A stretch of DNA of 64,000 bases from Spirochaetia bacterium (GTDB lineage: Bacteria; Spirochaetota; Spirochaetia; SZUA-6; Bin103), in assembly GCA_965198005.1 (NCBI GenBank), contig CBDAOI010000002.1, positions 384,001 through 448,000 of the forward strand. Direction: 5' to 3'. Positions 4,436 through 59,174 of the stretch are shown here, piece by piece; within the stretch, counting starts at the first letter, position 1; each line of letters begins with the position of its first letter. Below the pieces are notes generated by a model that ran no database searches, was not told the DNA's origin, and saw nothing but the letters and a program-made list of their open reading frames with translations. Made by a program: the position numbers and the translations under genes.

Positions 4436-6802
4436 TCACTTCCCGTGCTGGTCGTGAACGGCAATCGCGGCGCGGAGTTGGGCGCGTTCGCCAGCGCCGT
4501 CGGCCACGCGGCCACGCTCGGCCGTCTCCAGCAGCAGACGCATGTGCGCAAGGTCGTCGGCGTACTGCGCGAGCCGCCGCTGGTGACTTGCACGGGTCTT
4601 GGTGCAGACCAACGTGAACGGACGGCCCTTGCGCTCGGTCTCGTGCAGCAGGTCCAGCCCTTCGCGCTTGATGCTTTGATGGACGTGCCGGCGCAACTCC
4701 TGGCGTAGCGGCAGTCGCAGTATCTGCGCCCGCGGGTCGGCGTAGAACTGTTGCAGCCGGCGGCAGTGCTGGCAGCCGCACGAGACCGTGGCCTCCAGCG
4801 CCCAGTCGCGCGGCGCCGCTGGGGGCTGCGCGCTACGAGCTAGCAGAGAGCCGGCGGCATGGCGCCACAGCTTCGCGAACGCCGGGACTGCCGCCGCGCG
4901 CTCGGTGAGCCCCGGAAGGTCCGCCAGCGCCGCCGGCAGCGTGCGGTCGGGCGGGGCCGCGGCGGGGTGCTCGATCAGCAGTTCGGCGGTCGCGTCGGCC
5001 TCCCGGTCAAGTGCGAAGTGCCCGGCGAGCGCCAGCAGGTTGCGGACCGCGGCGCTGTCGAGAGGTGGCGGCGGATTGCGCAGCGACCGATCGCGCCGGG
5101 CATTGGTACGCAGCTCCAGAGCACCGGAGATGTTCTGCAGCAGGAGTTGCACGGCGTCGCGCAACGCACCGTGCCAGGGGGCTTCCTCCTTCCTGTCCGG
5201 AACCCGGCTCAGGCGCCACACGAGATCGATTACGCCGTCGGTACGGCGCAGCAGATTCGCGCCGATGAACTCCGGCAGCCAGTCGCGGAGCGCAATCGGA
5301 GTGATCGCAGCCGCCAACTCCTCATTGACTCCGCCGGAGTACCTCGGCGTGACAATCTCGCGCAGGAAGCGGAGCGTGATGGAGCGGTCACCCAGCCGGC
5401 ACAGCAGCCGCAGTGCGGTGCGGATCTCGGTGCGGCGCCCGCGCGGCGGCTTCGGCCACGCGTCGATGAGCTGCTCGGCGAGGTCGCGCAAACGGCCGGG
5501 CTCGGCCTCGGACTGGTCGCTGCGTTCCAACTCGTCCGCAACGTAGACAACGAACGCACCGATTCCGGCGCCGGCCAGGGCGGTGACGGCCCGTGCCCGC
5601 GGCCACAGCACCAGCGCCGCCGAGCGGTATGCGCGCTCGATCTCCACGCCCGCGTTGCCGGTCGCCTCGCTCACCGACTCATCGTCCGGTTGGGCGTCGT
5701 CCAGAGCGCCGACGGGTAGCAGTTCGCCCGATCCCAGCGGCAGCTTGCCGTAGTCCGGCCTCATGTCGTCCGGCGCCACCCAGTCGTCGAGCCAGTGCTC
5801 GGAGTCGATCACCTCGCCGGCCTCCAGGTCACTGTCGCCAAGCTTGAACCCGTACGGCAGGTCCTGCGGGTACTCCGAGGCGTAGTACACCTTAACGTGG
5901 AGAATCGCGGCGTAGAGGGCGCAGTCCGCGCGCCGCGCCGCCTCCGCCAGAGTGCGGGCAACGGCCGCGTCGACGTTCTTCAAGGCCCCGAACGAGAGCC
6001 CCGCCTCGCTGTAGTCGTGCTCCAGCAGCCAGACGATTTTATTGCGGTCGTGCGTAGCATGATCCCACTGCTGCAGCAACGCGGCAATGCGCCCCGTCAC
6101 GGCGTCGTAGTCGGGTGCCCGCTCCAGCGCGCCGTGAGCGGCTCCGCGCAGCACGAGTTGGTAGACCAGGACGATGCGGTGGCCGGTGGCGACCGGCCGG
6201 GTCTCGTGCATGCAGTCGGCGTAAAACGCCGCGAAGGCAAGCTCCGACGGGTCCTCGGTGCGCAGGTCGATCACGGTCTCATGCTCCCGGTGGCGAATCA
6301 CCAGCTCGCCGCCCGTCCCGGCGACCGGCAGCGAGATCACCAGCGTGGCGACCATGCCGATCGCCTTCTCGCTGTCGCGGTGGGCGCTGAAGAACCCGCC
6401 CGGCTCGTAGACCAGCAGCTTGTAGAGGCGCGCCTCGGTGCGCTCGCGCGGGCAGCCGAGTCCCTCGGCGGCACGGCCGACGATCTGCGCCAGCGTGTCA
6501 CTCCATGCCCCGCCGCCCACGGCCACCTTGTCTGCGTCGATCTGCCAGCAATCGCGTACCGAACGGTCCAGCACCGTGTCCGGCCCCCGGCCGTACGGCG
6601 CCCGCGCCGCGGCCGCGATCAGATCCTGCACCTGCGCCGCGGGCACCGGAAAGGAAATCAGTCCCGCACCCGCCACCTCCAGGCGCGGCAGCGGCACTGC
6701 CAGCCGCCCGTGGGTGCAATACTCCCCCGGACGGTCGATCGACTGCAGCAATTCCCCCAAGGCGGATTGCCCGGGGTGGTACTCGATTCCGACGTTCGCC
6801 AT
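4436..6802 (-). CDS. Large 2OG-Fe(II) oxygenase family protein (788 aa) with C-terminal Cys/His motif
   Basis: LYKLLVYEPGGFFSAHRDSEK (HxD), DCMHE (distal H), GHRIVLVY (2OG-binding R); C-terminal CGCQHC..RRHVH. Confidence 0.85.
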   Translation of the reverse strand: MANVGIEYHPGQSALGELLQSIDRPGEYCTHGRLAVPLPRLEVAGAGLISFPVPAAQVQDLIAAAARAPYGRGPDTVLDRSVRDCWQIDADKVAVGGGAWSDTLAQIVGRAAEGLGCPRERTEARLYKLLVYEPGGFFSAHRDSEKAIGMVATLVISLPVAGTGGELVIRHREHETVIDLRTEDPSELAFAAFYADCMHETRPVATGHRIVLVYQLVLRGAAHGALERAPDYDAVTGRIAALLQQWDHATHDRNKIVWLLEHDYSEAGLSFGALKNVDAAVARTLAEAARRADCALYAAILHVKVYYASEYPQDLPYGFKLGDSDLEAGEVIDSEHWLDDWVAPDDMRPDYGKLPLGSGELLPVGALDDAQPDDESVSEATGNAGVEIERAYRSAALVLWPRARAVTALAGAGIGAFVVYVADELERSDQSEAEPGRLRDLAEQLIDAWPKPPRGRRTEIRTALRLLCRLGDRSITLRFLREIVTPRYSGGVNEELAAAITPIALRDWLPEFIGANLLRRTDGVIDLVWRLSRVPDRKEEAPWHGALRDAVQLLLQNISGALELRTNARRDRSLRNPPPPLDSAAVRNLLALAGHFALDREADATAELLIEHPAAAPPDRTLPAALADLPGLTERAAAVPAFAKLWRHAAGSLLARSAQPPAAPRDWALEATVSCGCQHCRRLQQFYADPRAQILRLPLRQELRRHVHQSIKREGLDLLHETERKGRPFTLVCTKTRASHQRRLAQYADDLAHMRLLLETAERGRVADGAGERAQLRAAIAVHDQHGK

Positions 6803-9783: not shown

Positions 9784-12183
9784 TCAAACATCGGGGGTTT
9801 GCCCATTCCTCGTAGACTGAACGGCAATCGCGGAGCGGAGTAGATCGAGCTTGCCGGAGTCCACGGTATTTCCCACGTGGGCACGCTCGGCGGTCTCTAC
9901 CAGCAGGCGCATGTGCGTAATGTCCTCCGCGTACTGCGCAAGCCGCCGCTGGTGACCGGCGCGCGTCTTGGTGCAGACCAGCGTGTAGGGACGGCCCTTG
10001 CGTTCGGTCTCGTGGAGCAGGTCGAGCCCGTTACCGTCGATGATCCCGTGGAGATGCCGGCGCAGTTCCTTGCGGAGCGGAAGCCGCAGCACTCTCTCCC
10101 GCGGGTCGGCGTAGAACCGTTGCAGTTCGCGGCAATGCGGGCACTGACACGAAATCGAGGCCCCCAGCGCCCAGTCGCTCGGTGCCGCGGGCGGCCGCGC
10201 GCTCCTTGCCAGCAGGTAGCCGGCGGCATGGTGCCACAGCGCCTTGAACGCCGGGGCTGCCGTTGGGCGCTGCGGCAGGACCGCAAGTTCCGCCAGCGCC
10301 GCCGGCAGCGTCCGATCGGGCGGCGCGGCTACCGGGTGTTCGATCAGCAGTGCCGCGGCTGCGTCCGCCTCTTGAGCCAGATCGAAATGCCACGCGAGGG
10401 CCAACAGGTTGCGGATCGTGGCGGCGTCCACGGGTGGCGGAGGTTTGCGCAGAGATCGATTCCCGTGGGCGTTGGTCCGCTGCTCCAGGGCGCCGGAGAT
10501 GGTCCGCAACAGGAGTTGCGTGGCGTTGCGCAGTGCGTCGTGCCAGCCCGCGTCCTGCCCCTCGGCCGGAACCAGGATGAGCCGCCATACGAGATCGATC
10601 ACACCATCCGTGCGCGACAGCAGATTGGCGTCGATGAATTCCGGCAGCCAGTCGCGGAGCGCTGCCGGGGTAACCACCGCGGCCAACTCGGCGTTCAGCC
10701 CACCGGAGTAGATCGCCGTGGTAACGTCATGCAGGAAGCGGAGCGTGATGGACTGGTCACCCAGCCGGCACAGCAGCCGGAGCGCGGCACGGCAGCTCCG
10801 TTCGACATCCGTCCGGCGCCCGGGCGGCGGCGCCGGCCACGCGTCGATGAGCTGCGTGGCAAGGTCGCGCAGGCGGCCATGCGCGGCCTCCGAATGGTCG
10901 TTGCGTTCCAACTCCTCGGCGACGTAGGCGACGCTGGAGCCGATACCGGCGCCGGCCAGCGTGGCGACGGTCCGTGCGCGCGGCCACAGCACCAGCGCCG
11001 CCGAGCGATACGCGCGCTCGATTTCGACCCCCGCGTTGCCCGTGGCCTCGTTCACCGACTCGTCATCCGGATCGGCGTCGTCCAGAGCGCCGACGGGCAG
11101 CAGTTCGCGCGCCCGCAACGGCAGCTTGCCGTACTCCGGCCTGACGTCGTCCGGCGCTACCCAATCATCGAGCCAGTGCTCGGAATCGAGCACCTCCCCG
11201 GCCTCAAGATCGCTGTCGTCCAGGTCGACACCGTAGGGCAGGTCCTGCGGGTACTCCGCGGCGCAGGACTCCTCGATATGCAGAATCGCGGCGTACAGGG
11301 CACAGTCCGCGCGCCGAGCCGCTTCGGCCAGGGTCCGAGCCACTGCGGCGTCGGTGTTCTTCAAGGCCGAGAACGAGAGCCCCTCCTCGCTGTACTCGTG
11401 CTCCAGCAGCCAGACGATCTTCTCCGCGCCCTGCGTGCTACGGTCCCACTGCGCCAGCAGGGCTGCGATGCGCTCCGTCAGCACGTCGTAGTCGGGTGCC
11501 CGCTCCAGCCCGCCGTGGTCGCCGCCGCGCAGCAGCAGTTGGTAGACCAGAACGATGCGGTGGCCGGTGGCGACCGGCCGGGTCTCGTGCACGCAGTCGG
11601 CGTAGAATGCCGCGAAGGCCAGCTCCGAGGGATCCTCGGTGCGCAGGTCGATCACCGCCTCATTCTGCTTGTGGCGGATCACCAGCTCGCCGCCCGTGCC
11701 GGCGACCGGCAGCGAGATCACCAGCGTTCCGACCATCCCGGTCGCCTTCTCGCTGTCGCGGTGGGCGCTGAAGAACCCTCCCGGCTCGTAGACCAGCAGC
11801 TTGTAGAGGCGCGCCTCGGTGCGCTCGCGGGGGCAGCCGAGTCCCTCCGCTGCGCGGCCGATGATCTGCGCCAACGTCTCGCTCCATGCCCCGCCGCCCA
11901 CGTCGACCTTGTCCGCGTCGATCTGCCAGCAGTCGCGGACCGATCGGTCCAGCACCGTCTCCGACCCCCTGCCGTACGGCGCCCGTTCCGCCGCCGCCAC
12001 CAGAGCCTCGGCCTGGGCGGGCGGAACCGGAAAAGGAATCAACCCGGCGCCCGCAACCTCCAGGCGCGGTAGCGGCGCGAACAGCCGGCCATGGGTGCAG
12101 TACTCGCCGGGGCGGTCAATTGATTCCAGCAACCCTTCCAGGGCTGATTGAGCGGGATGATATTCGACTTCGAAGTTGGACAT
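9784..12183 (-). CDS. Large 2OG-Fe(II) oxygenase family protein (799 aa), paralog of 4436-6802
   Basis: Same HRD/H/R motifs, CQCPHC..RRHLH; colinear with the other copy. Confidence 0.85.
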   Translation of the reverse strand: MSNFEVEYHPAQSALEGLLESIDRPGEYCTHGRLFAPLPRLEVAGAGLIPFPVPPAQAEALVAAAERAPYGRGSETVLDRSVRDCWQIDADKVDVGGGAWSETLAQIIGRAAEGLGCPRERTEARLYKLLVYEPGGFFSAHRDSEKATGMVGTLVISLPVAGTGGELVIRHKQNEAVIDLRTEDPSELAFAAFYADCVHETRPVATGHRIVLVYQLLLRGGDHGGLERAPDYDVLTERIAALLAQWDRSTQGAEKIVWLLEHEYSEEGLSFSALKNTDAAVARTLAEAARRADCALYAAILHIEESCAAEYPQDLPYGVDLDDSDLEAGEVLDSEHWLDDWVAPDDVRPEYGKLPLRARELLPVGALDDADPDDESVNEATGNAGVEIERAYRSAALVLWPRARTVATLAGAGIGSSVAYVAEELERNDHSEAAHGRLRDLATQLIDAWPAPPPGRRTDVERSCRAALRLLCRLGDQSITLRFLHDVTTAIYSGGLNAELAAVVTPAALRDWLPEFIDANLLSRTDGVIDLVWRLILVPAEGQDAGWHDALRNATQLLLRTISGALEQRTNAHGNRSLRKPPPPVDAATIRNLLALAWHFDLAQEADAAAALLIEHPVAAPPDRTLPAALAELAVLPQRPTAAPAFKALWHHAAGYLLARSARPPAAPSDWALGASISCQCPHCRELQRFYADPRERVLRLPLRKELRRHLHGIIDGNGLDLLHETERKGRPYTLVCTKTRAGHQRRLAQYAEDITHMRLLVETAERAHVGNTVDSGKLDLLRSAIAVQSTRNGQTPDV

Positions 12184-36761: not shown

Positions 36762-38747
36762 TCACGTACGCATGCGTCCGCGACCACCGGCGCGCAACTG
36801 CACGAGCAGGATGCTGAGGTCGGCCGGGCTTACGCCGCTGATGCGGCTGGCTTGGCCGAGCGTGCGCGGCCGCACGAGCTGGAGCTTCTCACGGCCCTCG
36901 TGCGAGAGGGCATCGATGGCTCCGTAGTCGAGGGAATGGGGAATGCGCAGCGCCTCGAACCGCTGCAGCCGCTCGATGTTGTGGCGCTCGCGGGCGATAT
37001 AGCCTTCGTACTTCAACTCCACCTCGGCTGCGGCCAGCAACTCGGGGTCGGCGAGCAGCGCCGTGAGCGGGGGGCTGGCGTCGGTTCCGGCGGCGGGTGC
37101 CGCGGTTGCGGCGTCCGCCGGGGACAGTGTCTCGCCCAGCAGGGCGCCCAGCCGGACCTCGGGGCGCCGGCACAGGGCGGCGGCGCTCTCGGGGCGCTGC
37201 AGCTCGCTGGCGCCGCGCGCCCGCAGCCAGCCGTTGACCCTGGCCGGCGCCAGCGTCGTGCGCCGCAGTGCCGCCACGGCGGCGTTGAGCAGCTCGGACC
37301 GGCGGCGCAGCCGCGTCATCGCTTCGTCGCCGATCAGACCCAGCTCATGTCCGTACGCGCTCAGGCGACGGTCGGCATTGTCCTGGCGCAGCACCAGGCG
37401 GTGCTCCGCACGCGAGGTGAACATGCGGTACGGCTCGTACGACGGCTTGGTCACCAAGTCGTCGATCAGCACCCCGACGTAGGCCTCGTCGCGGCGCAGG
37501 ACCAGCTCGTCACGGGCGCCGTTCGCACCGCGGTGCAGGGACAGCGCCGCGTTGATCCCTGCCATCAGCCCCTGTGCCGCTGCCTCCTCGTAGCCGGAGG
37601 TGCCGTTCACCTGGCCGGCGAAGTAGAGCCCGCGCAGGTGCTTGCTCTCCAGCGTCGCGTCCACCTGGTAGGCGGGAAAGAAATCGTACTCCACGGCGTA
37701 GCCGTAGCGCGCCACCTCCACCTGCTCCAGGCCGCGCACGGTGCGTAGCGCCGCCAACTGCACCTCCGCCGGCAGCGAGCTGGAGAAGCCGTTGAGGTAG
37801 ATCAGGTCGCTGTCCAGCCCCTCCGGCTCCAGGAACAGTTGATGGCGGTCGCGGTCGGCGAAGCGCACCACCTTGTCCTCGATCGAAGGGCAGTAGCGCG
37901 GGCCTGCCCCCTGAATGCGGCCGGTGAACATGGGCGAGCGGTCGAAGCCGGTGGCGAGCAGCTCGTGGGTCGCGCGATTGGTGAAGGTGACGTGGCAGCT
38001 CACCTGCGGCAGGCGCGGGAAACGGGCCGGGTCGGTGCGTCGCGAAAACGGCACCGGGCGGTCGTCGCCCGGCTGCTCGTCCAGCACGCTGAAGTCGATG
38101 CTGGCATGCAGCAGCCGCGGCGGGGTGCCGGTCTTGAGGCGGCCGGTCTCGATGCCCAGGCGGCCGAACGCCTCCGACAGCCCGGTAGCCGGCTGCTCGC
38201 CGAATCGCCCGCCGGCGCTGCCGTTCAGGCCGGTGAACAGCACGCCATTGAGAAACGTGCCCGACGCGACCACCAGCGCGCGGCAGCCGATCTCCTCCCC
38301 GGTACCGGTCACCACGGCCGCCACCCGGCCGCCACGGGCCACCACGTCCACCACCATCTCCTCGATAACGGTGATGGCTCCTGCGGCCGCCACCAGCTCC
38401 TGCGCCGCGGCGGCGTACGCCTCGCGGTCGGACTGGCAGCGCGACGACCAGATCGCCGGCCCCTTGGAGCGGTTCAGCAGCCGGAACTGGATGCCGGTAG
38501 CGTCCGCCAGCTCCCCCATCACCCCACCGAGGGCGTCGATCTCGTGCACCAGGTGACCCTTGGCGGTGCCGCCGATAGCCGGGTTGCAGGACATGCGGCC
38601 GATGGCCGCGGCTTCGCTGGTGACCAAGCCAACGCTGCAGCCCATGCGCGCCGCCGCCACCGCCGCCTCGATGCCGGCGTGCCCGCCGCCGATCACGATC
38701 AGGTCGAACATCGTTTTGCTTCCGCTACTGCCATCTTGTGTCGCCAT
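36762..38747 (-). CDS. mnmG: tRNA uridine-5-carboxymethylaminomethyl synthesis enzyme
   Basis: GGGHAG, SCNPAIGG, RLKTGTPPR, GPRYCPSIEDK, AGQVNGTSGYEEAAAQG (start 38747 or 38711). Confidence 0.97.
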   Translation of the reverse strand: MATQDGSSGSKTMFDLIVIGGGHAGIEAAVAAARMGCSVGLVTSEAAAIGRMSCNPAIGGTAKGHLVHEIDALGGVMGELADATGIQFRLLNRSKGPAIWSSRCQSDREAYAAAAQELVAAAGAITVIEEMVVDVVARGGRVAAVVTGTGEEIGCRALVVASGTFLNGVLFTGLNGSAGGRFGEQPATGLSEAFGRLGIETGRLKTGTPPRLLHASIDFSVLDEQPGDDRPVPFSRRTDPARFPRLPQVSCHVTFTNRATHELLATGFDRSPMFTGRIQGAGPRYCPSIEDKVVRFADRDRHQLFLEPEGLDSDLIYLNGFSSSLPAEVQLAALRTVRGLEQVEVARYGYAVEYDFFPAYQVDATLESKHLRGLYFAGQVNGTSGYEEAAAQGLMAGINAALSLHRGANGARDELVLRRDEAYVGVLIDDLVTKPSYEPYRMFTSRAEHRLVLRQDNADRRLSAYGHELGLIGDEAMTRLRRRSELLNAAVAALRRTTLAPARVNGWLRARGASELQRPESAAALCRRPEVRLGALLGETLSPADAATAAPAAGTDASPPLTALLADPELLAAAEVELKYEGYIARERHNIERLQRFEALRIPHSLDYGAIDALSHEGREKLQLVRPRTLGQASRISGVSPADLSILLVQLRAGGRGRMRT

Positions 38748-38891
38748 CTTCGCATTCCTGCGCGTCCGCTGCATCCCGCGCACCGGACCCACAGGCATCT
38801 TCACCTCGGTCGCCCACGTATACGTCTCGTGACAGCAAACCTTGACCAGCTCGCGCACCGTGCTTTCCGCTCGATGCGTGGCCGCCGCGAT

Positions 38892-39222
38892 GTCGAGGGA
38901 GTTGCTCACTGGCGGCGGCTCCGGTGGGCACGCTGGCGGCGGTCACACGCGGCGGATCGTGATGGTACGGCCTCGCTTCAGACGGGCGATCGTCTCGCCG
39001 CTGCCGGTCGCCAAGCGTGAGACCGTCGACAGCCGGCGCCGGGTACGCTTGGCGAAGATCGTGCAGAGGCGGGACAGCCACTCTTCCGTGTCATCCATAG
39101 CGTACAACGTGTCAGACATAGCACGATCCGCCTACCCTGTCAAACGGATCTCGTGGTTTTTCTGAGATATTTGCGGTATCGTGTTACACGTGACACGTCG
39201 GGGGCTGGAACATCTCCGCTCG
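38892..39222. repeat. Second copy of the cro/promoter/cI-start block (direct repeat of 40392-40806, with an internal deletion)
   Basis: Near-identical sequence read directly. Confidence 0.95.
38943..39098 (-). pseudogene. Truncated Cro-like HTH copy (51 aa)
   Basis: First 50 codons encode the same peptide as 40406-40681; deletion creates an early stop. Confidence 0.75.
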
Positions 39223-39245
39223 AACGTGTGGCTGTCGTTGCTACG

Positions 39246-40148
39246 CTACCTGCATTGATTGTTCACTAGGCCTGTACCCTCCGGGCACACGGCACCGGCC
39301 TTCAGCAGCACCTCGACGGTTGGGTAGTCCACATCTTTACCTACAAGATCCTGACGGCTGACGACATACAGCGGGTTTGAGTTATCAGGAGCTGCGGCGT
39401 TCACGTCGGCGCCAGCCTTGATTAGCGCTTCCGCGGTCCACGGGTTGCTCACCCCGAATATGGGAGTAGTCCCAATACTATTTCGAGCGTTCGGGTCTGC
39501 TCCCGCCGCGACGAGAGCACTCACGACCGAGGGATCGGCCGAGTAATCGGCCGCCAAGTGTAACGGCGTCCCGCCCCATTCATCGCGCGCGTTCGGGTCT
39601 GCACCGGATTCGAGCAGTGCCATGACATTGACCGAATTGTTCTCATACAGAGCCAAGTCAAGCGGCGTAAAGCCGTCGGCGCGAGCGTCTGCGTCGGCTC
39701 CGTACCGGACCAGGAGGGCTATGTTATCACCGCTATTTGGGGTGGGAGCTGCAAAGTGCAGAGGAACCAAAGAGTCATTATCCTGCGCATTCGGATCGGC
39801 TCCCGCGTCCAGAAGCGCTTCGAGAACGACAGGTGGAACGTTATCCCTAACGGCCAAGTGCAGCGGCGTACGATTACTTTCAGAGTCGCGTTCGTTAACG
39901 TCAGCACCGTTCGCCAGTAACTCGACCACGTCCTCTACCGTGACGCTCGCCCACACGTCTATCGCGAGGAACGTCGCGGTGGTTACAGCGTCTCCTGATT
40001 GATCCGTCACGGAGGACTCTTTCGACGTCTCAATTCTTCCGGCGCTAACGCAGCCAACCAGGGCCAGCGCCAGCGCGACTCCAATCAGTTGCCGCACATG
40101 CCTCACATATACATATGTATGGTCGGTATGGGTTTTCCAAATGTCCAT
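39246..40148 (-). CDS. Ankyrin-repeat lipoprotein
   Basis: Lipobox LVGC after a hydrophobic stretch; repeated TPLHLA..LL.AGADPNA units; lower GC; exact start uncertain. Confidence 0.9.
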   Translation of the reverse strand: MDIWKTHTDHTYVYVRHVRQLIGVALALALVGCVSAGRIETSKESSVTDQSGDAVTTATFLAIDVWASVTVEDVVELLANGADVNERDSESNRTPLHLAVRDNVPPVVLEALLDAGADPNAQDNDSLVPLHFAAPTPNSGDNIALLVRYGADADARADGFTPLDLALYENNSVNVMALLESGADPNARDEWGGTPLHLAADYSADPSVVSALVAAGADPNARNSIGTTPIFGVSNPWTAEALIKAGADVNAAAPDNSNPLYVVSRQDLVGKDVDYPTVEVLLKAGAVCPEGTGLVNNQCR

Positions 40149-40253
40149 CGGGTGATTCCTCTTCTCTTGTTGTTGAATCTTGTTGAAGAACGGTAATTCC
40201 ACTGCCGAACTCTCGCCTGCCTTCAAACACAAGCGATGGGCAAGAACCTGTTC

Positions 40254-40333
40254 ATGATACGGCTTGGCGGGATGCGTCAACCGCCGATGTTTTATTTTCT
40301 GTGACTTTTGCGATATCGGGTCACATGTGACAC
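40254..40333 (-). promoter_or_regulatory. Third, diverged copy of the cro promoter/operator, upstream of the ankyrin gene
   Basis: 40295-40333 matches 40742-40780 at 32/39 nt; TTGAC at the same offset; contains palindrome GTCACATGTGAC. Confidence 0.6.
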
Positions 40334-40405
40334 CTCCGGTTAGTCGTGGCCCGGTCGTTGTGAGCTGCACGACCGGCGCGAGTTTGCTGTGGTCGACGGA
40401 GTTGC

Positions 40406-40681
40406 TCACTGGCGGCGGCTCCGGGTAAGCCGGCGGCGATCACGCGCGGCGTCCTTGGGCCGCGGGATCTCGGCAGGCCATTCCTGGTCGTCGGGCCAGT
40501 GGTCGGACAGGTACCTGAGCGCCCGAGCCGCGCGGCGGATCGTGATGGTACGGCCTCGCTTCAGACGGGCGATCGTCTCTCCGCTGCCGGTCGCCAAGCG
40601 TGAGACCGTCGACAGCCGGCGCCGGGTACGCTTGGCGAAGATCGTGCAGAGGCGGGACAGCCACTCTTCCGTGTCATCCAT
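40406..40681 (-). CDS. Phage Cro-like HTH protein
   Basis: Small basic HTH (LSTVSRLATGSGETIARL) with WPDDQEWPAEIPRP tail; divergent from an S24 repressor. Confidence 0.7.
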   Translation of the reverse strand: MDDTEEWLSRLCTIFAKRTRRRLSTVSRLATGSGETIARLKRGRTITIRRAARALRYLSDHWPDDQEWPAEIPRPKDAARDRRRLTRSRRQ

Positions 40682-40697
40682 AGCGTGCATCGTGCCA

Positions 40698-40780
40698 GAC
40701 ATAGCACGGCCTGTCCACCCCTGTCAAACGGGTCCGGTGGCTTTTCTGAGATATTTGCGGTATCGTGTTACACGTGACAC
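40698..40780 (-). promoter_or_regulatory. Divergent promoter/operator region between cro and cI
   Basis: Minus-strand TTGACA (40722-40727) .. TGcTATGTC; GTTACACGTGACAC motif. Confidence 0.6.
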
Positions 40781-41601
40781 GTCAGGGGCTGGAACATCTC
40801 CGCTCGGTGGTACGCGCTCAAGTCGAACGAGAGGGCCTGCGGCCGCTCTCTGCCCGCACCGGGATACCCGTCGGACAGCTTCGCAGCATCCTGCACGGGC
40901 GGGCGGCGTTGAGCACCACCCTGGAACTCGCTACCTCGGCCCTCGGTCTGGAGTTCTACGTCGGACCGCCGCGCGTAGCGGATACGACGCGGATCGCGAG
41001 CGGCTCCACCCCCTACACGGCTGGCACGGTCGACCGAGCCCCTGCTCCGCCCGCCGCTGAGCAGTCCCCCACGTGGGCGATGAAGCTGCGGCAGGAGTTG
41101 CGCGCCGGGCTGCGCGAAGATCTGGCTCTGCTGCTACGCGAGCTTACCGAGTCCAGGCGCAACGCCGCCCTGCCCGAGGCCGGAGACCGGCGCGATCCAG
41201 GCTACGTGGCGATGCGCACCCCTGACCCGGCGGCCGGGGGCGTCCCCGAGCTGGAGCACGCGCCCATCATCGGCTACCTCGCGTTTCAACGCAGTTGGCT
41301 CGAGCGCCACGCGATCGATCCCGACCGCTGCACGATCATGGAGGTGCGGGGAGACGCGATGCAGCCAACGCTGCCGGGCGGCTGCTCGATCCTGGTCGAT
41401 CACCAACGCCGCCGGCGCCGTCTCGGGCACATCTTCGTGCTGCGCATCGGCGACGAGTGGATCGTGCGGCGCGCGGGCAAGGATCAGACCGGGCGCTGGG
41501 TCCTGGTGAGCGACAATCAGCGTCGCCCACCGGAGCCGTGGCCCCATCGCGGGACCGCAGTTGCCGGTGAGGTGCGCTGGATGGCGACGACCTTCTCCTG
41601 A
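40765..41601 (+). CDS. cI/LexA-like repressor (HTH + S24 domain, catalytic Ser/Lys substituted)
   Basis: N-terminal HTH; C-terminal VRGDAMQP..ILVD..IVRR..LVSDN. Confidence 0.85.
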   Translation: MLHVTRQGLEHLRSVVRAQVEREGLRPLSARTGIPVGQLRSILHGRAALSTTLELATSALGLEFYVGPPRVADTTRIASGSTPYTAGTVDRAPAPPAAEQSPTWAMKLRQELRAGLREDLALLLRELTESRRNAALPEAGDRRDPGYVAMRTPDPAAGGVPELEHAPIIGYLAFQRSWLERHAIDPDRCTIMEVRGDAMQPTLPGGCSILVDHQRRRRRLGHIFVLRIGDEWIVRRAGKDQTGRWVLVSDNQRRPPEPWPHRGTAVAGEVRWMATTFS

Positions 41602-41712
41602 GCAACGAGGCGCGGCCGCGTGACCGGCGCCGGCCGGGCGTTTCCCGCCGGGCGGTAAGCTGTTGCGTACTACATTGCCTGCCATACTGTAGCTGGCTAG
41701 AAGATATAGCGC

Positions 41713-43173
41713 ATGGCGGACGAGAACACCCTGGAGACGCAGATTGCCCGGTGGCGGGCGCACCTGCTGCACGGCCGGGCAGTCGATCCCACCGACGTGG
41801 AGGAGATGGAAGTCCATCTGCGCGAGCAGGTGGCCGCGCTGCTGGCTACCGGTCTGGCGGCCGACGAGGCCTTGCTGGTCGCGGTCAGGCGGATGGGAAA
41901 CATCGACGCGGCGTGCCGCGAGTTCGCGCGCGTCCACTCCGAGCGGTGGTGGAAGCAACTCGTGGCCGAACCCGCCGGCGGCGGCCCGGCTGGCGGCGGG
42001 CGCACCGAGACCGCCGTGGTAGTGGGCATCGCGCTCGCCGCGGCGGCGGCGATCAAGGTTCCCGAGTTGTTCGGCCACCACTTCGGCAGCGCCGCCAGTG
42101 AGGGGTTCTACGCACGCAACGCCTCCCTGTTCGTGCTGCCGCTGCTGACCGGCTACTTGCTCCGGAAGCGCGGCTGGGACGCGCGCCGCGCGCGGTGGCT
42201 GGCCGCGCCGTTCGCTGCGGCTGCCGTGCTGGCCAACGCCTTCCCGTTTGCGCCGCACGGCGCCACCGGGCTTCTCACCGCGATCCATCTGCCGATCGCG
42301 CTGTGGCTGGCGGTGGGCGTCGCCTACGCCGGCGGGCGCTGGAGCTCGGTTGCCGGGCGCATGGACTTCGTGCGCTTCTCCGGGGAGCTGTTCATTTACT
42401 ACGTGCTGTTCGCGCTCGGCGGCGGCGTGCTCGCGTTCTTCACCGGGACCATGTTCGGCGCCATCGGCCTGGACGTCGGGCGGCTGCTGGAGACCTGGCT
42501 GCTGCCGTGCGGCGCGCTCGGAGCGGTGATCGTGGGCGGCTGGCTGGTAGAGCGGAAGCAGAGCGTGATCGAGAACCTGGCGCCGCTGCTTACGCGCGTG
42601 TTCACGCCGCTGTTCGCGGCGGTGTTGCTGGCGTTGCTGGTGACCATGGTGTGGACCGGCAACGGTATCGCCGTCGACCGGGAGGTGCTGATCGGCTTCG
42701 ACCTGCTGCTGGTGCTGGTCGTGGGCCTGCTGCTGTACGGAGTGTCGGCGCGCGACCCGCAAGCGCCGCGCGACGCGTTCGACGCCCTGCAGCAGCTCCT
42801 GGTGGTGGCCGCACTGGTGGTGGACGTGGTGGCGCTGGCGGCGATCGCGACGCGCATCTCGGAGTTCGGCTTGAGCGCCAACAAGGTGGCGGCACTGGCC
42901 GAGAACCTCATCCTGCTGGTCAACTTGGCCGGGTCGGCCTGGCTGTACGCCCGGTTTCTACGCGGCGCCGGCGCGTTCGCCGCCCTGGAGCGGTGGCAGA
43001 CCGCCTACCTGCCGGTCTACGCCGTGTGGGCGGCGATCGTGGTGGTCGTGTTTCCCCGCCGCTGTTCGCCATACCTCTACCCGTTGCCCGGTCCGCGTAG
43101 ACTGTGCCAAAGGGAACGTCGCCCAAGAACAGGCGTTCTCGTGGGCGATAGGGGGAGGCGCTATCGCTCATGA
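41713..43173 (+). CDS. Multi-pass membrane protein with permease-prefix N-terminal domain
   Basis: VEEMEVHL..EALLVAVRRMG prefix, many TM helices; last ~35 aa look like read-through into foreign DNA. Confidence 0.75.
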   Translation: MADENTLETQIARWRAHLLHGRAVDPTDVEEMEVHLREQVAALLATGLAADEALLVAVRRMGNIDAACREFARVHSERWWKQLVAEPAGGGPAGGGRTETAVVVGIALAAAAAIKVPELFGHHFGSAASEGFYARNASLFVLPLLTGYLLRKRGWDARRARWLAAPFAAAAVLANAFPFAPHGATGLLTAIHLPIALWLAVGVAYAGGRWSSVAGRMDFVRFSGELFIYYVLFALGGGVLAFFTGTMFGAIGLDVGRLLETWLLPCGALGAVIVGGWLVERKQSVIENLAPLLTRVFTPLFAAVLLALLVTMVWTGNGIAVDREVLIGFDLLLVLVVGLLLYGVSARDPQAPRDAFDALQQLLVVAALVVDVVALAAIATRISEFGLSANKVAALAENLILLVNLAGSAWLYARFLRGAGAFAALERWQTAYLPVYAVWAAIVVVVFPRRCSPYLYPLPGPRRLCQRERRPRTGVLVGDRGRRYRS

Positions 43174-44176
43174 AGTGGATTTGGCAACAAGCCGGGTGGC
43201 CCGGCTTCGCGTGGGACCGGTCCCGAATGGCGTCACTGGAGGCCCGGTTCCTGCACGAGTCCGGCCGGCGGGTTGGCGCTTGGCGCCATCTCTCGGACTG
43301 AGCGGCGACTCGCGCAGAGTCACGCCCGCCGAGGCCGGTGTGGCCGAGATGATGGTAGCGCTCTACCGCACGTTTCGCGCGCCGTTGGATCACGCAACGT
43401 TGTGGACGTGGCACCGAATGCTGATGCAAGAGCGCCGAGCATTGGCGGTGATCGGCGGATATCGGCGCCATCCCGAGCCAATGCAAGTGGTCTCCGGCCC
43501 CGATTACCGCCGGAGAATCCACTATGAGGCGCCGCCGTCCGCCGCGGTGCCGACCGAGATGGACCGGTTCATCGCCTGGTACGGGCGGCAGGACGCTACG
43601 CCGGCGTTGACCCGGGCCGGGATCGCGCACTGGTACTTCGTCCGTATCCACCCCTTCGAAGATGGGAACGGCCGGATCGGCCGGGCGCTGGCCGAAAAAG
43701 CGCTCGCCCAAGCGCTGGGTGAGCCGAGTCTGATCGCGCTCTCGCGGGCGATCGCCCGCCGCCGCAACGCTTATTACAACGCGCTTGCGGCCGCCAACCG
43801 CTCGCTGGACATCACCGGATGGCTGGAGTGGTTCGGCGGCATCGTGTTGGACGCCCAGGCCTGGAGCGAGCGGCGCCTGATCCGGCTGATCGAGCAGACC
43901 CGGATGTTCGACCGACTCCGAGGACGGCTGAATCCACGCCAGACGAAAACGCTGCTGCGACTGTTCCGGGAGGAGCCGGACGGATTCAAGGGCGGCCTCA
44001 GCGCTGCAAATTACCGCCGCATCACCGGCGCGCCAGCCTCTACGGCCACCCGTGACCTCGCCGATCTGGTCGCCAAGCGCGCCCTGCGCCGCACCGGCGA
44101 ACGCCGCCACACGCGCTACTGGCTTGATCTGCCCCCGTTCGAGCGATTGGACGCGCAGCGTAGATCGAGCGCATGA
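43170..44176 (+). pseudogene. Fic family protein, internally deleted
   Basis: MKWIWQQAGWPGF start stops at about 43300; downstream frame has HPFEDGNGRIGR and a C-terminal wHTH (ATRDLADLV). Confidence 0.8.
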
Positions 44177-44282
44177 CCTTCTTGCCGAGGCGCCCGCCCG
44201 CTCGCACGTAGAGAGCAGTACCGTACGCGGTCTTCGGACATGCGTGCCGCGCCATGAGTATCGCTGCCGGGAAGTGGGCCGG

Positions 44283-44724
44283 TCAGCGGTAGGTTATGAT
44301 CTCCAGACTGGTCACCCGGCCAAACTGGGCCGTATTCGCGGTAACCAGGGGCAACCCGTAGCGCACGCTGGTCGCCGCGATCCAGAGGTCGTTGGCCCCG
44401 ATCAGCCGACCGGCCTGCCGCAACGCGCGCGCAATCCGCCCGTAGGCGAGGGCGGTTCGGTCGTCGATCGGCAACAGCAGATGTTGTTCGCGAACGGTTT
44501 GCAGCAGCGGGTCTTCCGTCGGAGAACCCCTCCGCGAACTCGCCCAGCGCCGTAGGTGACAGGTAGAGCTCCAATCGGGTGCAGCCGCCAGGAAACGATG
44601 CGCCGGGCCGGCGATCTCGCAGTGACTGCGCTCCCGTTTCAAAGCACGGTGCTCCCGCCAAGGCACTACGCTCTCGCTGCAAGTCGATGAGAAACGTGGT
44701 GTCGAAAGCTACTTTCGTTGCCAC
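44283..44724 (-). pseudogene. vapC: VapC/PIN toxin, frameshifted
   Basis: FDTTFLID start, IGANDLWIAA..VTAN tail; 12-bp imperfect direct repeat 40 bp apart (44625/44665) breaks the frame. Confidence 0.75.
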
Positions 44725-44954
44725 CGATCCTCCGGTGCCGCGTCTGCGACCTGTGCAGCATCCAAGCCATCAAGCTCGGCTTCGGTCATGACCGGCATGC
44801 CGTCGAGCACAGCCAGCATGGACGCTACGGTTCCCGGGGCGGGCGGCCAGATCGCACGTTTGATCACCTTCGAGAAGGAGTCATCAGGCGACCGGCGCGC
44901 GCTCCGCAGCCTTTCGTAGGCCTCCAGATCGATGGAAATGGTCTTGGTTGCCAT
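44709..44954 (-). CDS. VapB-type antitoxin
   Basis: MATKTISIDLEAYERL..DSFSKVIKR. Confidence 0.85.
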   Translation of the reverse strand: MATKTISIDLEAYERLRSARRSPDDSFSKVIKRAIWPPAPGTVASMLAVLDGMPVMTEAELDGLDAAQVADAAPEDRWQRK

Positions 44955-45086: not shown

Positions 45087-46588
45087 CTATTTGCCGATGC
45101 AGAAGTCGGCGAAGATCCGGTTGAGCACGTCATCGCCGGCGACGATGCCGATGATCTCCTCCAGGTGGGCGACGGCGGCACGCAGGTCGGCGGCCACCAG
45201 CTCGCCTCCGGCGCCGGCCGCCGCCGCGTCGTGGGCGCGGGCCAGCGCGGCGTCGGCGCGCTGCAGGTTGTCACGGTGGCGGGCGCTGGCCACCAGGGAG
45301 CTGCGTTCGGTGTAGTCTGGGCCTTCCTGCCCCACGGTGCGGGCCACCAGCAGGCGGCTCAGAGCATCGATCCCCGTCCCGGTCTTGGCCGATACCGTGA
45401 GGGCCGGCGGCGGCGCCGCAGTACCGTTCGCTGCCGGTGCCAGATCGCACTTGTTGGCGATCACCACCACCTCCGGTGCGCCGGAGGTCGGCGCCCTGGT
45501 CGTGGACCCGGCGTCGGCAACGGCCGCGCGCACCTGCTCCAGGGCGGTGTGGGGAAACGGCTCGTCGGCGGCGGTCACGAACAGCACCAGGTCGGCGTCG
45601 GCGACGGTGGCGATGCTGCGCTCCACGCCCAGCCGCTCCACGGTCTCGTCGGTGACCCGCAGCCCGGCGGTGTCGTGCAGCCGCACCGGCACGCCGTGGA
45701 GGTCGAGGTCTTCGCGGATCACGTCGCGGGTGGTGCCCGGTACGTCGGTGACCAGCGCCAGCGATTCCTGCGCCAGCCGGTTCAGCAGCGACGACTTGCC
45801 CACGTTGGGCGGCCCGGCCAGCACCACGTGCACGCCGTCGCGGAGCATGCGCCCGGTGCGGAAGGTCGCGAGCATCGCGGCGATCGCGGCGCGCACCTCT
45901 CCCACGCGCGCGGCGATCTCTCCCGCCGGCGCCAGCTCCACGTCATCTTCGGCGAAGTCCAGCTCCAGCTCGACGCGCGCCGCGCAATCCAGCAACTGCT
46001 GCCGCAAGCCCGCCACCTGCGCGCCGAGCGCGCCGCCCAGCCGGTTGCGGGCGCCGCGCAGGGCGGCCGCGGTGGCGGACCGTATCACCTCCGCCACCGC
46101 CTCGGCCTGGGTCAGGTCCAGCTTGCCGTTGAGGAAGGCGCGGCGGGTGAACTCGCCCGGCTCGGCGGCGCGCGCGCCGTGGCGCAGAAGGGCGGCGACC
46201 ACGGTCGCGGCCACCAGGTTGGAGCCGTGGCAGGTGATCTCGACGGTGTCCTCGCCGGTGTAACTGGCCGGCGCCCGGAACACGGTGGCGATCACGTCGT
46301 CCACCACCTCCAGGCCGTCGGCTGCGCTTGGCTCAGGCGCCGTTGCGACGGCCGCCGCCGCCGCGACCAGACCGGTGGCGGCGCTCACCCCCCGGGCGGC
46401 GGGCTGCACGATGCGGCCGTAGTGCGCGGTGTGGGTCGCGGCGGCGCGCAACGGCCGGCGGCCGCGGAAGGCGCCGTCGGCCACGGCCAGCGCGGCAGGT
46501 CCGCTGAGCCGCACGATCGCCAGCGCGCCGGTGCCGGGCGGGGTAGCGATGGCGACGATGGTGTCGCCGCTGGGGTCGGCGGACGCGG

Positions 46589-46592
<4 letters not shown>
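45087..46592 (-). CDS. mnmE: tRNA modification GTPase
   Basis: DTIVAIAT, SYTGED, GPPNVGKSS, GTTRD, DTAG, NKCD, FCIGK. Confidence 0.97.
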
Positions 46593-56901: not shown

Positions 56902-59174
56902 TCAGGCGGAATCAGGTGACACTTCTGGCGGCGGATTACCGGCCAACTGGTAGACGAGCCTGAGTTCGGTGCCGGGATAGATCGTGTTGGTTCCGTTGAG
57001 TTCCTCGACCAGGGGAGCGAGCATGCGGTCGCAAGCGTCGCTGCCGAGGCCGAGAAGCTGGATCCGCAGAATCCCCTTGGCAGGCTCCGGGATGATGTTG
57101 GCGTCGGAGGTCAGCAACGCGCGCAGCAGCCTGCGGGCATTCGGTTTCTTGCCCTGGGCGCTGATCACGGGCGCCATCATGCGGGTCTCCGCGCGATAGG
57201 CGATCATCCGCACCACGTCCATGAACAGGCGCCCGCCAACCGGCAGGGCGTCCAGCCGGTCCTGCTCCGACAGGTCGCCGGCGCGGACATGGGTCGGGGT
57301 GTCGGCCCGCTCCTGCCTGAGTGCATCGAGTCGTTCGTCCAGCGCCTGGGCGTCAGCTTCAAGGCGGGTGGCGGTGTCCCGGTTGGGTTCCTTCAGTGCC
57401 ACGGCGAGGCGATTGCGGGCCGCTGACAAGCGGCTGCGTACCTGCCTGATGGTCTTTTCGAGGGCGCGGCGCACGGGGTTCACGACCTGTGCGTCGGGGT
57501 CAATCGGATCAAGGTCATGGGTGGGCAGGGAGTCGAGGTTGAACTGCTCGCGCAGGTACTTGAAGAAGTTCTCCTGCGACCAGCGCGAGAACATGGCGCC
57601 GGCGACCTGCTCCAAGGGCATCTGCGGATGGGTGGTGATCACTGGCACTTGGCGACCGGTGGCGAGCCGGCGCCGGATCTGGCGGACCGTGAGCCCGTTG
57701 CGCAGTACGATCGGTTTCTCGGCGAGGTCAACGGTGGTGGCACTGGTTCCAGCGGGCGCATGGATCGGTACCTCGAGCGGGTGGAAGTCCTCCTCCGGCC
57801 AGTCCTCGCCCGTGAAGTTCTTGTGCCAGGTGATGCAGGCGATGCCGCGCCGGGCCAGCCGCTTGAACAGGTCTGGGCTCCAGCCCTCGCGGTCGAACAC
57901 CAGGGTGAGCGCCGGCGCACCGGCTTCCGGCTGGGTCAGGTCGGGGGCCGCTTCCGGCACCACCCCCAGTTGCAGCAGGTGCGGCACCACGTCCTGTTCG
58001 AGCGCCTTGACCAACTTCGGGTCAAGCGCCTTGTGCAGGCACAGCAGGGGCGTGCCACCCAGGGCGTTGATCCAGTAGCTCACGGACGCCGGCAAACACA
58101 GCTTCTGGCGCGCGACGAAGTGTTTCGGCAGCCGACCGTTGCGCCCGGTGTATACCTTCACGTGGCCGTCGACGGCCAGCGTCGCCCAGTCGTCCTGGTG
58201 CTCGGTGGCCCAGGTACGAGCCAGTGCCGATTGCCAATCGCGCACGGTGTGCTCGGCGCTGGTGAGCAGCCTGAGCTTGCGGCGGAGGGTCTTGGTCTCG
58301 GGGCCGCGGTCGAGGCCGAGGATCGCGCCCCATGGGCGCGTGCAGGTCTCGCGGGTCGCCACTCGGGCCACGGCACGATCGGTGGGTCAGGAAGATGTGT
58401 CGTAGGCGGAACGTCCGACGCTGGGGGCGTGAGTCGGCGACGGACGCCGCTTGATGTGTCTGCGGAGCGTCCCGGCGCTGGGGGCGTGATCGGCGCCGCG
58501 GCAGGCTGGGGCGCGTGATCGGCGGCGGAGCTTGATGTGTCTGCGGAGCGTCCACGCTGGGGGCGTGATCGGCGGACCGGAGCTTGATGTGTCTGCGGAG
58601 CGTCCACGCTGGGGGCGTGATCGGCGGACGGAGCTTGATGTGTCTGCGGAGCGTCCACGCTGGGGGCGTGATCGGCGACCGGAGCTTGGTGCGTTTGCGG
58701 AGCGTCCACGCTCCCGGTGTGCGTCCGCGCGGGCTCGACGATGACGCCGGCGCGGCGGTTCGCTTTGAAAGTGGTCGCCGCGATGCCGAGGTGCCGTGCA
58801 CACGCGTTGCCGCTCATCCCGGAGGCGAGCAGTTTGGCGGCCTGGTCGGCCATCTGGGCGTCGACGACGGTGCGCCCGCGCCTCCGTAGCGGCCCGTAAA
58901 ACGCGTCTTCGCCGTGCTCCCGATAGCGTCTGACTGCGCGCGCCACGGTCGGTCGCGAGACCTGGAAGGCACGCATGAGGTCGCGTTGGCGGACCCCGGA
59001 GACGACCTGCAGCTTGGCGGCGCGCAGCAGCATGGCGCGGCGGTCGCCGGCCGGGTGGCAGTCGTAGGGTTCGAGGTTGTAGAAGTAGTAGGTGATGCCG
59101 GCACGGGTCTGCATGGCGTGCTGGTCGCCGATCGGGGTGGCGTCGGGAAGGGAGAACGGGAGGGAGAGGATCAT
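56902..59174 (-). pseudogene. DDE transposase, disrupted by a tandem repeat region
   Basis: N-terminal HTHs (59174-58740); VDGH, VFDREG, RWSQENFFK in 56902-58371; frames broken at 58340-58580. Confidence 0.8.
58385..58712. repeat. About 51-bp tandem repeat (3-4 clean plus degenerate units)
   Basis: GGAGCTTGATGTGTCTGCGGAGCGTCCACGCTGGGGGCGTGATCGGCG.. encoding SVDAPQTHQAPVADHAP. Confidence 0.9.

Follow-up and report, generated by a model that had tools for sequence, protein, structure and literature searches.

What becomes of the immunity switch of a phage when the phage itself is gone, and which host genes can such a remnant come to serve? The question is raised by positions 38892-41601 of a 64,000-nucleotide (nt) stretch of the chromosome of a sponge-associated spirochaete (Spirochaetia bacterium, GenBank assembly GCA_965198005.1, contig CBDAOI010000002.1, positions 384,001 to 448,000; the whole stretch is called the window here). 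A cI-like repressor gene and the small gene cro are divergently oriented at this locus, and a gene encoding an ankyrin-repeat lipoprotein lies between two direct repeats of the cro promoter segment. A first-pass annotation, made by a model from the sequence alone, had described a domesticated cI/cro switch with a triplicated promoter-operator, and every element that it listed is present where it had been placed; its interpretation is supported in part. The locus is best explained as the immunity region of a Mu-like prophage which was kept in the chromosome after all other phage genes were lost. We call it a domesticated switch, i.e. a pair of regulators that selection has maintained among non-phage neighbours although no functional phage is left, because cro has a ratio of nonsynonymous to synonymous substitution rates (dN/dS) of 0.10-0.21, phage genes are missing, a host PadR gene has been replaced and the module has lipoprotein genes as cargo in relatives. 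We consider it reasonably probable that the module works independently of the SOS response and sets transcription on its cro side, including that of the ankyrin lipoprotein gene, with direct operator control of the gene's own promoter (P3) being weak or lost.

A repressor and a divergent cro without other phage genes were indeed found. Among the 46 window proteins (33 + 13) scanned against Pfam, no phage structural, replication or transposition family was detected, with the exception of one transposase at 56.9 kb (Transposase_29 family, 56902-58368, E 1.8e-83), which is also the sole gene of a mobile element identified in the window. The repressor matched Peptidase_S24 in Pfam (E 2.7e-14) and, in PHROG, phrog_4 (transcriptional repressor) as well as CI-like families. 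Its structure model has four helices at residues 6-59, with predicted local distance difference test (pLDDT) values of 73-86, and a beta-rich C-terminal domain. The best match in the fold search was the C-terminal domain of the lambda repressor (2hnf, Foldseek E 2.6e-8), LexA was matched as well, and comparison of the model with 1f39 gave a template modelling (TM) score of 0.73 and a root-mean-square deviation of 1.9 over 93 columns. As modelled, the C-terminal domain has the S24 fold of LexA, UmuD and lambda CI. In a HMMER alignment, the motifs GDAMQP and IVRRAG stand where LexA has its nucleophile serine and its general-base lysine (GMSMKD and VKR in 8b0v). A repressor without this Ser-Lys dyad cannot be induced by self-cleavage and, therefore, the switch would be uncoupled from the SOS response. 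Thus, the annotated repressor with S24 fold was recovered, but not one inducible by self-cleavage. The loss is not confined to this protein: of 15 full-length homologues aligned, seven kept both residues and eight had lost one or both, including the window cI and its paralogue at a second copy of the module in the same genome (locus B). In the nearest genus (g2), another seven homologues of the repressor are only ~130-160 amino acids (aa) long and have no S24 domain.

The small partner protein of 91 aa was assigned to phrog_7669 (E 5.8e-23) and has 59 homologues in a large protein collection. The above-mentioned dN/dS of cro, determined against five relatives, points to purifying selection. 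The structure model is a four-helix bundle (pLDDT 77.9), and Cro probably binds DNA. Comparison with sequences in the PDB gave chance-level rows only, no tblastn match at E <=1e-3 was obtained among 50,697 records of isolated phage genomes, and hhalign against the Mu Ner family yielded a probability of 2.2%, i.e. Cro is not a sequence member of that family. A homology of Cro to the N-terminal domain of cI was also considered and rejected (hhalign probability 0.7%).

Homologues of cro were found at 79 genome loci, the nearest in metagenome-assembled genomes labelled Spirochaetia, followed by Vicinamibacterales and alphaproteobacteria. In the window, cro is divergent from cI and the first gene on its side, and the same arrangement is seen in 42 of the 79 loci, which also match the window cI, usually immediately upstream and on the opposite strand. 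A match to the Mu transposase proteins A or B (MuA, MuB) lies within <=6 kb in seven of the 79 loci; at one of them (L013) cro is followed by MuA and MuB, and another locus (L031) has Mu-like head genes. A cro-MuA fusion reading frame considered for L013 was rejected as a frame artefact, cro and MuA being separate genes. Of 80 IMG/VR viral contigs with a cro homologue, 22 have a MuA-type gene at a distance of 2-4 kb downstream of cro and 17 have a cI match, and none has an ankyrin match in the 8-kb flanks of cro. From the pairing of cI with cro and the MuA/MuB neighbours in related loci it follows that the pair occupies the c/ner position of Mu-like phages. Judging by these neighbours, the module appears to descend from the c/ner end of Mu-like transposable phages and not from a lambdoid phage, so that of the previously proposed phage-derived cI/cro switch the phage origin was upheld but a lambdoid descent was not. 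In seven Vicinamibacterales loci (L009, L018, L019, L022, L024, L025, L027), two tandem full-length S24 repressor paralogues lie upstream of cro, and Pfam scans of two of these loci, L019 and L022, showed them amid the housekeeping genes alaS, recX and rpsT. This suggests independent chromosomal fixation of the module in Acidobacteriota.

The cro promoter segment of the window is duplicated. A repeat search revealed the pairs 38948-39137/40531-40720 (95% identity), 39135-39222/40719-40806 (94%) and 38892-38924/40392-40424 (97%), which are collinear and in direct orientation and were aligned as a single unit with the copies A1 and A2 (Table 1). Their lengths differ by an 83-nt deletion in A1 and a 1-nt indel, and identical runs of up to 106 nt are shared. 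Over the 50 shared cro codons, the copies differ at a single, synonymous position (38997 C vs 40580 A, GGC/GGA), while the ~85-nt spacer that separates the operator from the cro ATG has accumulated 12 substitutions and one indel, as had been described. A 39-nt block at 39158-39196 is identical to 40742-40780, and a third copy at 40295-40333, upstream of the ankyrin gene, matches in 32 of 39 positions. The region upstream of the ankyrin gene aligned locally to A1 or A2 with 36/45 identity (z ~14), a score that was reached by 0 of 500 shuffles. A TTGAC on the minus strand stands in register in all three copies, 54 nt past the operator start. The promoter-operator is, thus, truly triplicated and the ankyrin gene indeed lies between direct repeats, with A1 on one side and A2 on the other. 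A genome-wide scan for the 14-nt motif GTYACAYGTGACAC, which the first-pass annotation had called for, returned four occurrences in the genome (4.89 Mb), of which three are the window copies and the fourth lies at the paralogous locus B (C2:365858); with so few sites, the idea of a wider regulon had to be dropped.

Table 1 Features of the locus and its surroundings. Positions are those of the window unless another locus is named.
Feature	Position	Strand	Description	Basis
mnmG	36762..38705	-	tRNA uridine carboxymethylaminomethyl modification enzyme; downstream of P1	Pfam GIDA, E 5.4e-150
LuxR/GerE-type regulator, 3' fragment	38841..38895	-	55 nt, 100% identical to C2:367356-367410
Direct repeat A1	38892..39222		331 nt; truncated cro', promoter P1 with O1 and O2, first 14 cI codons	repeat search, alignment
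cro'	38943..39098	-	51 residues after 83-nt frameshifting deletion	alignment A1/A2
O2 of A1	39108..39125		CGTG-N10-CACG, over P1 -10/+1	operator scan
P1 -35, TTGACA	39138-39143	-		operator scan
O1 of A1	39180..39197		CGTGTTACACGTGACACG	motif and operator scans
Ankyrin-repeat lipoprotein	39246..40148	-	300 aa, predicted lipobox L-V-G-C, foreign, low GC	Pfam, composition
P3/O3, third promoter-operator copy	40275..40334	-	TTGACG 40275-40280; O1-like palindrome 40317-40334, core GTCACATGTGAC; O2 absent
Direct repeat A2	40392..40806		415 nt; full cro, promoter P2 with O1 and O2, cI start	repeat search, alignment
cro	40406..40681	-	small protein, four predicted helices, phrog_7669, Ner/Cro position	PHROG, model
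O2 of A2	40691..40708		over P2 -10/+1	operator scan
P2 -35, TTGACA	40722-40727	-		operator scan
O1 of A2	40764..40781		overlaps cI start codon	motif, alignment and operator scans
cI-like repressor	40765..41601	+	four-helix N-terminal domain and S24 domain, Ser->Ala, Lys->Arg	Pfam, PHROG, fold match
Membrane protein	41713..43173	+	'permease prefix domain 1'; downstream of cI, native to position	NF038403, E 9.5e-11; synteny
Family-B DNA polymerase genes near module	L005:8278-10635, L030:10236-12074, L137:5118-7475, L140:6899-9256

When the intergenic regions of six relatives were aligned with those of A1, A2 and locus B, a conserved palindrome and a conserved GGTTGACA became apparent. A scan for CGTG-N10-CACG found two sites, O1 and O2, at fixed offsets from TTGAC, and both recur in relatives. 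O1 starts 52-54 nt upstream of TTGAC and overlaps the start codon of cI, O2 starts 18-19 nt downstream of TTGAC and covers the -10/+1 region of the cro promoter; their centres are ~72 bp apart, about seven helical turns. The O1 pattern had 15 hits in nine of 24 family genomes and the reversed control had 0, and the arms of O1 and O2 are perfect in A1, A2 and locus B. We regard O1 and O2 as putative operators for CI and Cro. Promoters were assigned from the conserved TTGAC(A/G) and the alignments. The P3 region is homologous to the cro promoter from O1 through the -35 to the -10 region, and the inner 12 nt of its O1-like site form a perfect palindrome. A stem at 40351-40376, read by eye as a terminator, was rejected (fold z -0.67, 45 of 200 shuffles fold as well), and a terminator scan gave only one site, within the ankyrin gene, fewer than the shuffles gave. 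With no significant hairpin in the interval from cro to the ankyrin promoter, read-through from P2 would not be blocked by a detectable terminator. The intergenic region of locus B contains a 34-nt insert and no TTGAC.

The ankyrin protein matched Ank_2 in five stretches (E 2.7e-41), a family with matches at three loci only in the genome, and its N-terminus reads as a basic n-region, a hydrophobic stretch and a lipobox, from which export is predicted. The G+C content at third codon positions (GC3) of the gene is 0.62 compared to 0.79-0.92 in neighbouring genes, the DNA of the cassette was not found in the 40 relatives searched, and the closest non-self homologue of the protein among the matches listed is <=48% identical. 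Judged by its low GC3 and its absence from these relatives, the gene is foreign. In relatives, the switch stands in front of other genes. Eleven operator-pattern sites were surveyed in eight related genomes, and seven of them face lipoproteins with the Ig-like repeats CARDB or He_PIG. At four sites (G006, G031, G030, G027) cro is followed by a CARDB or He_PIG protein, at three (G021, G030, G025) the site is flanked by a truncated second repressor gene and, immediately on the opposite side, by a He_PIG protein, and at four (G005, G029, G030, G025) cro has no such neighbour. A clear lipobox was present in six of the nine cargo N-termini inspected, and the switch locus holds all CARDB matches in G031 (12/12) and G027 (5/5). 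The 11 sites are partly orthologous, so that the number of independent contexts is perhaps four or five. In the He_PIG promoters, O2 and a vestige of the cro start are retained, which shows the same promoter capture as at the ankyrin gene. This survey, which had likewise been suggested, strengthens the general idea: the same switch before Ig-like lipoproteins suggests that there is a general way in which regulatory parts of phages are put to new use in the control of host-facing surface proteins. In genus g2, a RraA-like gene adjoins the truncated repressor gene (L004:144-857, L007:4576-5292, L030:4641-5354, L140:817-1533); since the g2 switch loci share this neighbour, they are partly orthologous and are not to be counted as independent. 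The g2 relatives also have, within a few kb of cI-cro, a gene for a family-B DNA polymerase (~786 aa) that is convergent with cro, so that polymerases recur near the module, of family B in g2 and DnaE2-like at locus B.

How the switch came to lie next to mnmG can be read from relatives. The locus sits between mnmE (45087-46589) and mnmG. In two relatives (G009, G010) mnmE adjoins mnmG, and in the two closest (G003, G004) a PadR gene and a membrane-protein gene are found between them. Homology of the window to G003/G004 ends at 38712/38716, 7-11 nt ahead of the mnmG ATG, and restarts at 41730/41735, at the start of the membrane-protein gene. From these breakpoints, a 3-kb segment replaced PadR together with both native upstream regions. 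Locus B (C2:364343-367410) comprises the 5'-terminal 645 nt of the membrane-protein gene (99% identical), followed by cI, cro and a LuxR/GerE gene (GerE, E 6.3e-6), of which a 55-nt piece is left at 38841-38895 in the window, and is a later copy of the module. It is part of a region outside the window (C2:364343-371635, loci L003 and L223) that carries this second module copy in inverted orientation, with a cro of 101 aa, and, ~0.75 kb past the LuxR/GerE gene, a DnaE2-like polymerase gene (DNA_pol3_alpha, PHP). The history would have started with PadR at the position, as in the closest relatives; cro-cI would then have taken the place of PadR, and the ankyrin cassette would have been inserted along with the duplication of the cro promoter segment. 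The strains thus record the steps from PadR to cro-cI and to cro-cI with the ankyrin gene, which makes them useful for studying the domestication of regulatory DNA.

In the mechanism that we propose, binding of CI and Cro to O1 and O2 would determine how active the promoters on the cro side are. Transcripts of the ankyrin gene would arise both by switch-controlled read-through from P2 and from the gene's own P3, which, having lost O2, would at best be weakly controlled, and the cI transcript would run on into the membrane-protein gene. P1 of A1 would be retained as the sole remaining promoter for mnmG: mnmG lost its own upstream DNA and is separated from mnmE by genes on the opposite strand, from which we infer that P1 is its only recognisable promoter. 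A need of mnmG for P1 would explain why O1, O2 and the -35 of A1 are intact despite the decayed cro, and supply of this promoter is the most likely reason for the persistence of A1. In this way, a surface lipoprotein that probably comes into contact with the sponge host would be under stable or stochastic regulation. To our knowledge, little is known about bacterial control of the expression of such ankyrins, and the locus offers a testable circuit: next to a repressor that is no longer inducible by DNA damage and its small partner, it has two defined operators and a promoter in three copies, of which one faces the ankyrin gene and another the housekeeping gene mnmG. In a metatranscriptome (X10), contigs were found on cI (40803-41036, 41368-41562) and mnmG only and none on cro or the ankyrin gene; because these are assembled contigs and the library may contain DNA, no inference was drawn.

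Several findings weigh against this mechanism. Neither the N-terminus of cI nor Cro matched a Pfam helix-turn-helix (HTH) family even at E 10, so that DNA binding by cI is a prediction, and Cro has no Pfam family at all; in fold searches it mostly matched HTH proteins of the XRE type, yet weakly, with Foldseek E >=1.4 and VIA Z <=6.1 in mixed rows. The window cI differs from that of locus B at no more than 12 sites (dN/dS 0.52), too few to indicate constraint. A simple sigma-70 scan of 38700-41000 returned 0 promoters. At P3, no CGTG-N10-CACG site was found at <=1 mismatch, i.e. O2 is lost, and each half of the O1-like site is altered at one position, both positions being invariant in the 14 other family operators; direct control of the ankyrin promoter by CI and Cro is, therefore, doubtful. 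The third promoter copy that had been annotated thus exists, but its regulation by the pair is questionable, and of the suggested phage-derived control of a surface ankyrin protein the phage-derived module remains but not an assured direct control through this copy. Finally, if the housekeeping gene mnmG relies on a cro-type promoter, that promoter cannot be tightly off, which also speaks against a strict bistable switch.

Since repeats of 330-415 nt can be mis-assembled, the whole duplication might be an assembly artefact, but this is exceedingly unlikely. An independent assembly (2.07-Mb contig) encodes an identical 98-aa cro, a truncated cro of 58 aa (P0183), which differs by one residue from the window cro', and a 99%-identical ankyrin protein. 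Furthermore, a 1300-nt contig of run X1 covers 39170-40469 with zero mismatches and extends across the cassette junctions on either side of the ankyrin gene. Contigs of run X3, from a separate study, cover the ankyrin gene and the junctions with strain-specific differences, a 6-nt deletion at 40105 and one substitution. Because the second assembly and the contigs of both runs carry the same structure, we take the duplication to be real. Could the repeats, then, recombine, so that the ankyrin gene plus one repeat is an excisable or mobile cassette that is gained and lost? Their long identical runs and the foreign composition of the cassette would fit, as would an ankyrin-less allele in a related population: a 1884-nt contig of run X8, from a third study with a different host label, joins mnmG (38712) via 124 unmatched nt to 40375-41900 at ~95% identity and places cro directly upstream of mnmG. 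The ankyrin-less allele that had been sought was, thus, found, but with its ~95% identity and a different intergenic region it represents another lineage and not an excision product, and recombination between the repeats would leave the truncated cro alone. Moreover, the cassette persists in two strains that are 2 substitutions and a 6-nt indel apart, and X1 and X3 gave no well-supported deletion joint but only joints with sides <30 nt, which were disregarded. No ankyrin-less allele was seen among the X1 and X3 contigs, which drop rare variants and are silent either way. We therefore judge such a mobile cassette to be improbable.

The duplicated locus could also be a decaying remnant without regulatory role, in which cro-type promoters have been taken over to drive mnmG and the ankyrin gene constitutively and the latter retains no more than a vestigial operator. 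The ankyrin copy lacks O2 and has a degraded O1, mnmG uses a cro-type promoter, one cro copy is already truncated and the catalytic dyad of the repressor is lost, all of which agree with decay. The selection on cro, the perfect O1/O2 arms in A1, A2 and locus B, full-length cI in two paralogous loci and the recurrence of the module beside lipoprotein genes in relatives are hard to reconcile with it, and we consider mere decay doubtful. Polymerase genes near the module, DnaE2-like 2 kb from locus B and of family B in g2 relatives, bring to mind a cellular, LexA-like damage regulator of translesion polymerases composed of the S24-like protein and its small partner. But it is in exactly these lineages that the dyad is lost or the S24 domain absent, none of the four operators in the genome stands at a polymerase gene, and the family is common in viral contigs beside MuA, which makes a damage regulator very improbable. 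A bolder version of the domesticated module would be a heritable, SOS-independent two-state switch that, across this family of sponge-associated spirochaetes, gives cell-to-cell variation in host-facing lipoproteins, the ankyrin protein in the window and CARDB or He_PIG proteins in relatives, and acquires new cargo by capture of the cro promoter. If true, it would be a phase-variation system for symbiosis factors made from phage parts; we regard it as rather unlikely.

The domesticated module shares with lambda CI/Cro the divergent genes for a repressor and a small regulator, the back-to-back promoters with repeated palindromic operators and a repressor made of an N-terminal helical and a C-terminal S24-fold domain. 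Unlike in lambda, the Ser-Lys dyad and with it RecA-stimulated self-cleavage is missing, the repressor has no Pfam HTH_3 match, there are two distant operators instead of the three adjacent ones of lambda OR, and no phage stands behind the switch. Like the left end of Mu-like phages, the module has a leftward repressor gene and a rightward small regulator gene, followed in related loci by MuA/MuB; Mu-like phages with HTH and S24 repressors, e.g. Shewanella MuM16-1, have been described, as has an S24-type C protein in several of them (PMC8541194). Here, in contrast, there are no MuA, MuB or structural genes, and compared to Mu itself, Cro is not detectably of the Ner family and the Mu c repressor is unrelated to cI (BLASTP E 59).

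Reuse of phage regulators by the host is not unprecedented. Cryptic prophages of E. coli contain CI/Cro-like switches, namely DicA/DicC of Qin, a toxin-antitoxin switch in O157:H7, which is reported to be bistable, and RacR (10.1101/2023.04.14.536235, PMC8630535, PMC11879457). There, too, phage regulators outlive the decay of the phage and control non-structural or host genes. These switches are located within recognisable prophage remnants, whereas only ~1.3 kb of switch is left here, host PadR was replaced, the module was duplicated and lipoprotein genes were wired to it family-wide. The regulator at the Ner position of Mu was recruited to host regulation as SfsB/Nlp, and SfsB is described as a lone gene product with 68% identity to Ner (PMC8987985); here, both partners have been retained together with their operators, and Cro does not resemble Ner in sequence. 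ANKp, a secreted ankyrin protein encoded by phages of sponge symbionts (ankyphages), lowered phagocytosis and cytokine expression in mouse cells, and sponge-symbiont and phage ankyrins are thought to blunt phagocytosis by the host (10.1101/608950). Ankyrin repeats, an N-terminal export signal (predicted here), phage-derived DNA and a sponge-associated bacterium are common to both cases, but the protein described here is a predicted lipoprotein with a lipobox and not a plainly secreted protein, and its gene is chromosomal, beside a phage regulatory remnant and not inside a phage genome. The combination of a Mu-like c/ner remnant having a dead or deleted protease domain with a promoter duplicated for a foreign ankyrin lipoprotein gene and a housekeeping gene, and with a link to lipoprotein genes that recurs throughout a bacterial family, was not found in the literature searched.

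The surroundings of the locus contain further accessory genes. A Fic-domain protein and a VapB/VapC (PIN) pair are encoded between the membrane-protein gene and mnmE (43175-44954) and are absent from this position in G003/G004; thus, the gap between mnmE and mnmG has gained several accessory genes. At the other end of the window, 4436-6802 and 9784-12183 encode two paralogues of ~790 aa, both of which contain a 2OG-Fe(II) oxygenase domain and which are nearly identical at their N-termini. Between them lie genes for a ResIII-like helicase and a PIN toxin-antitoxin pair, and this region could be a defence island.

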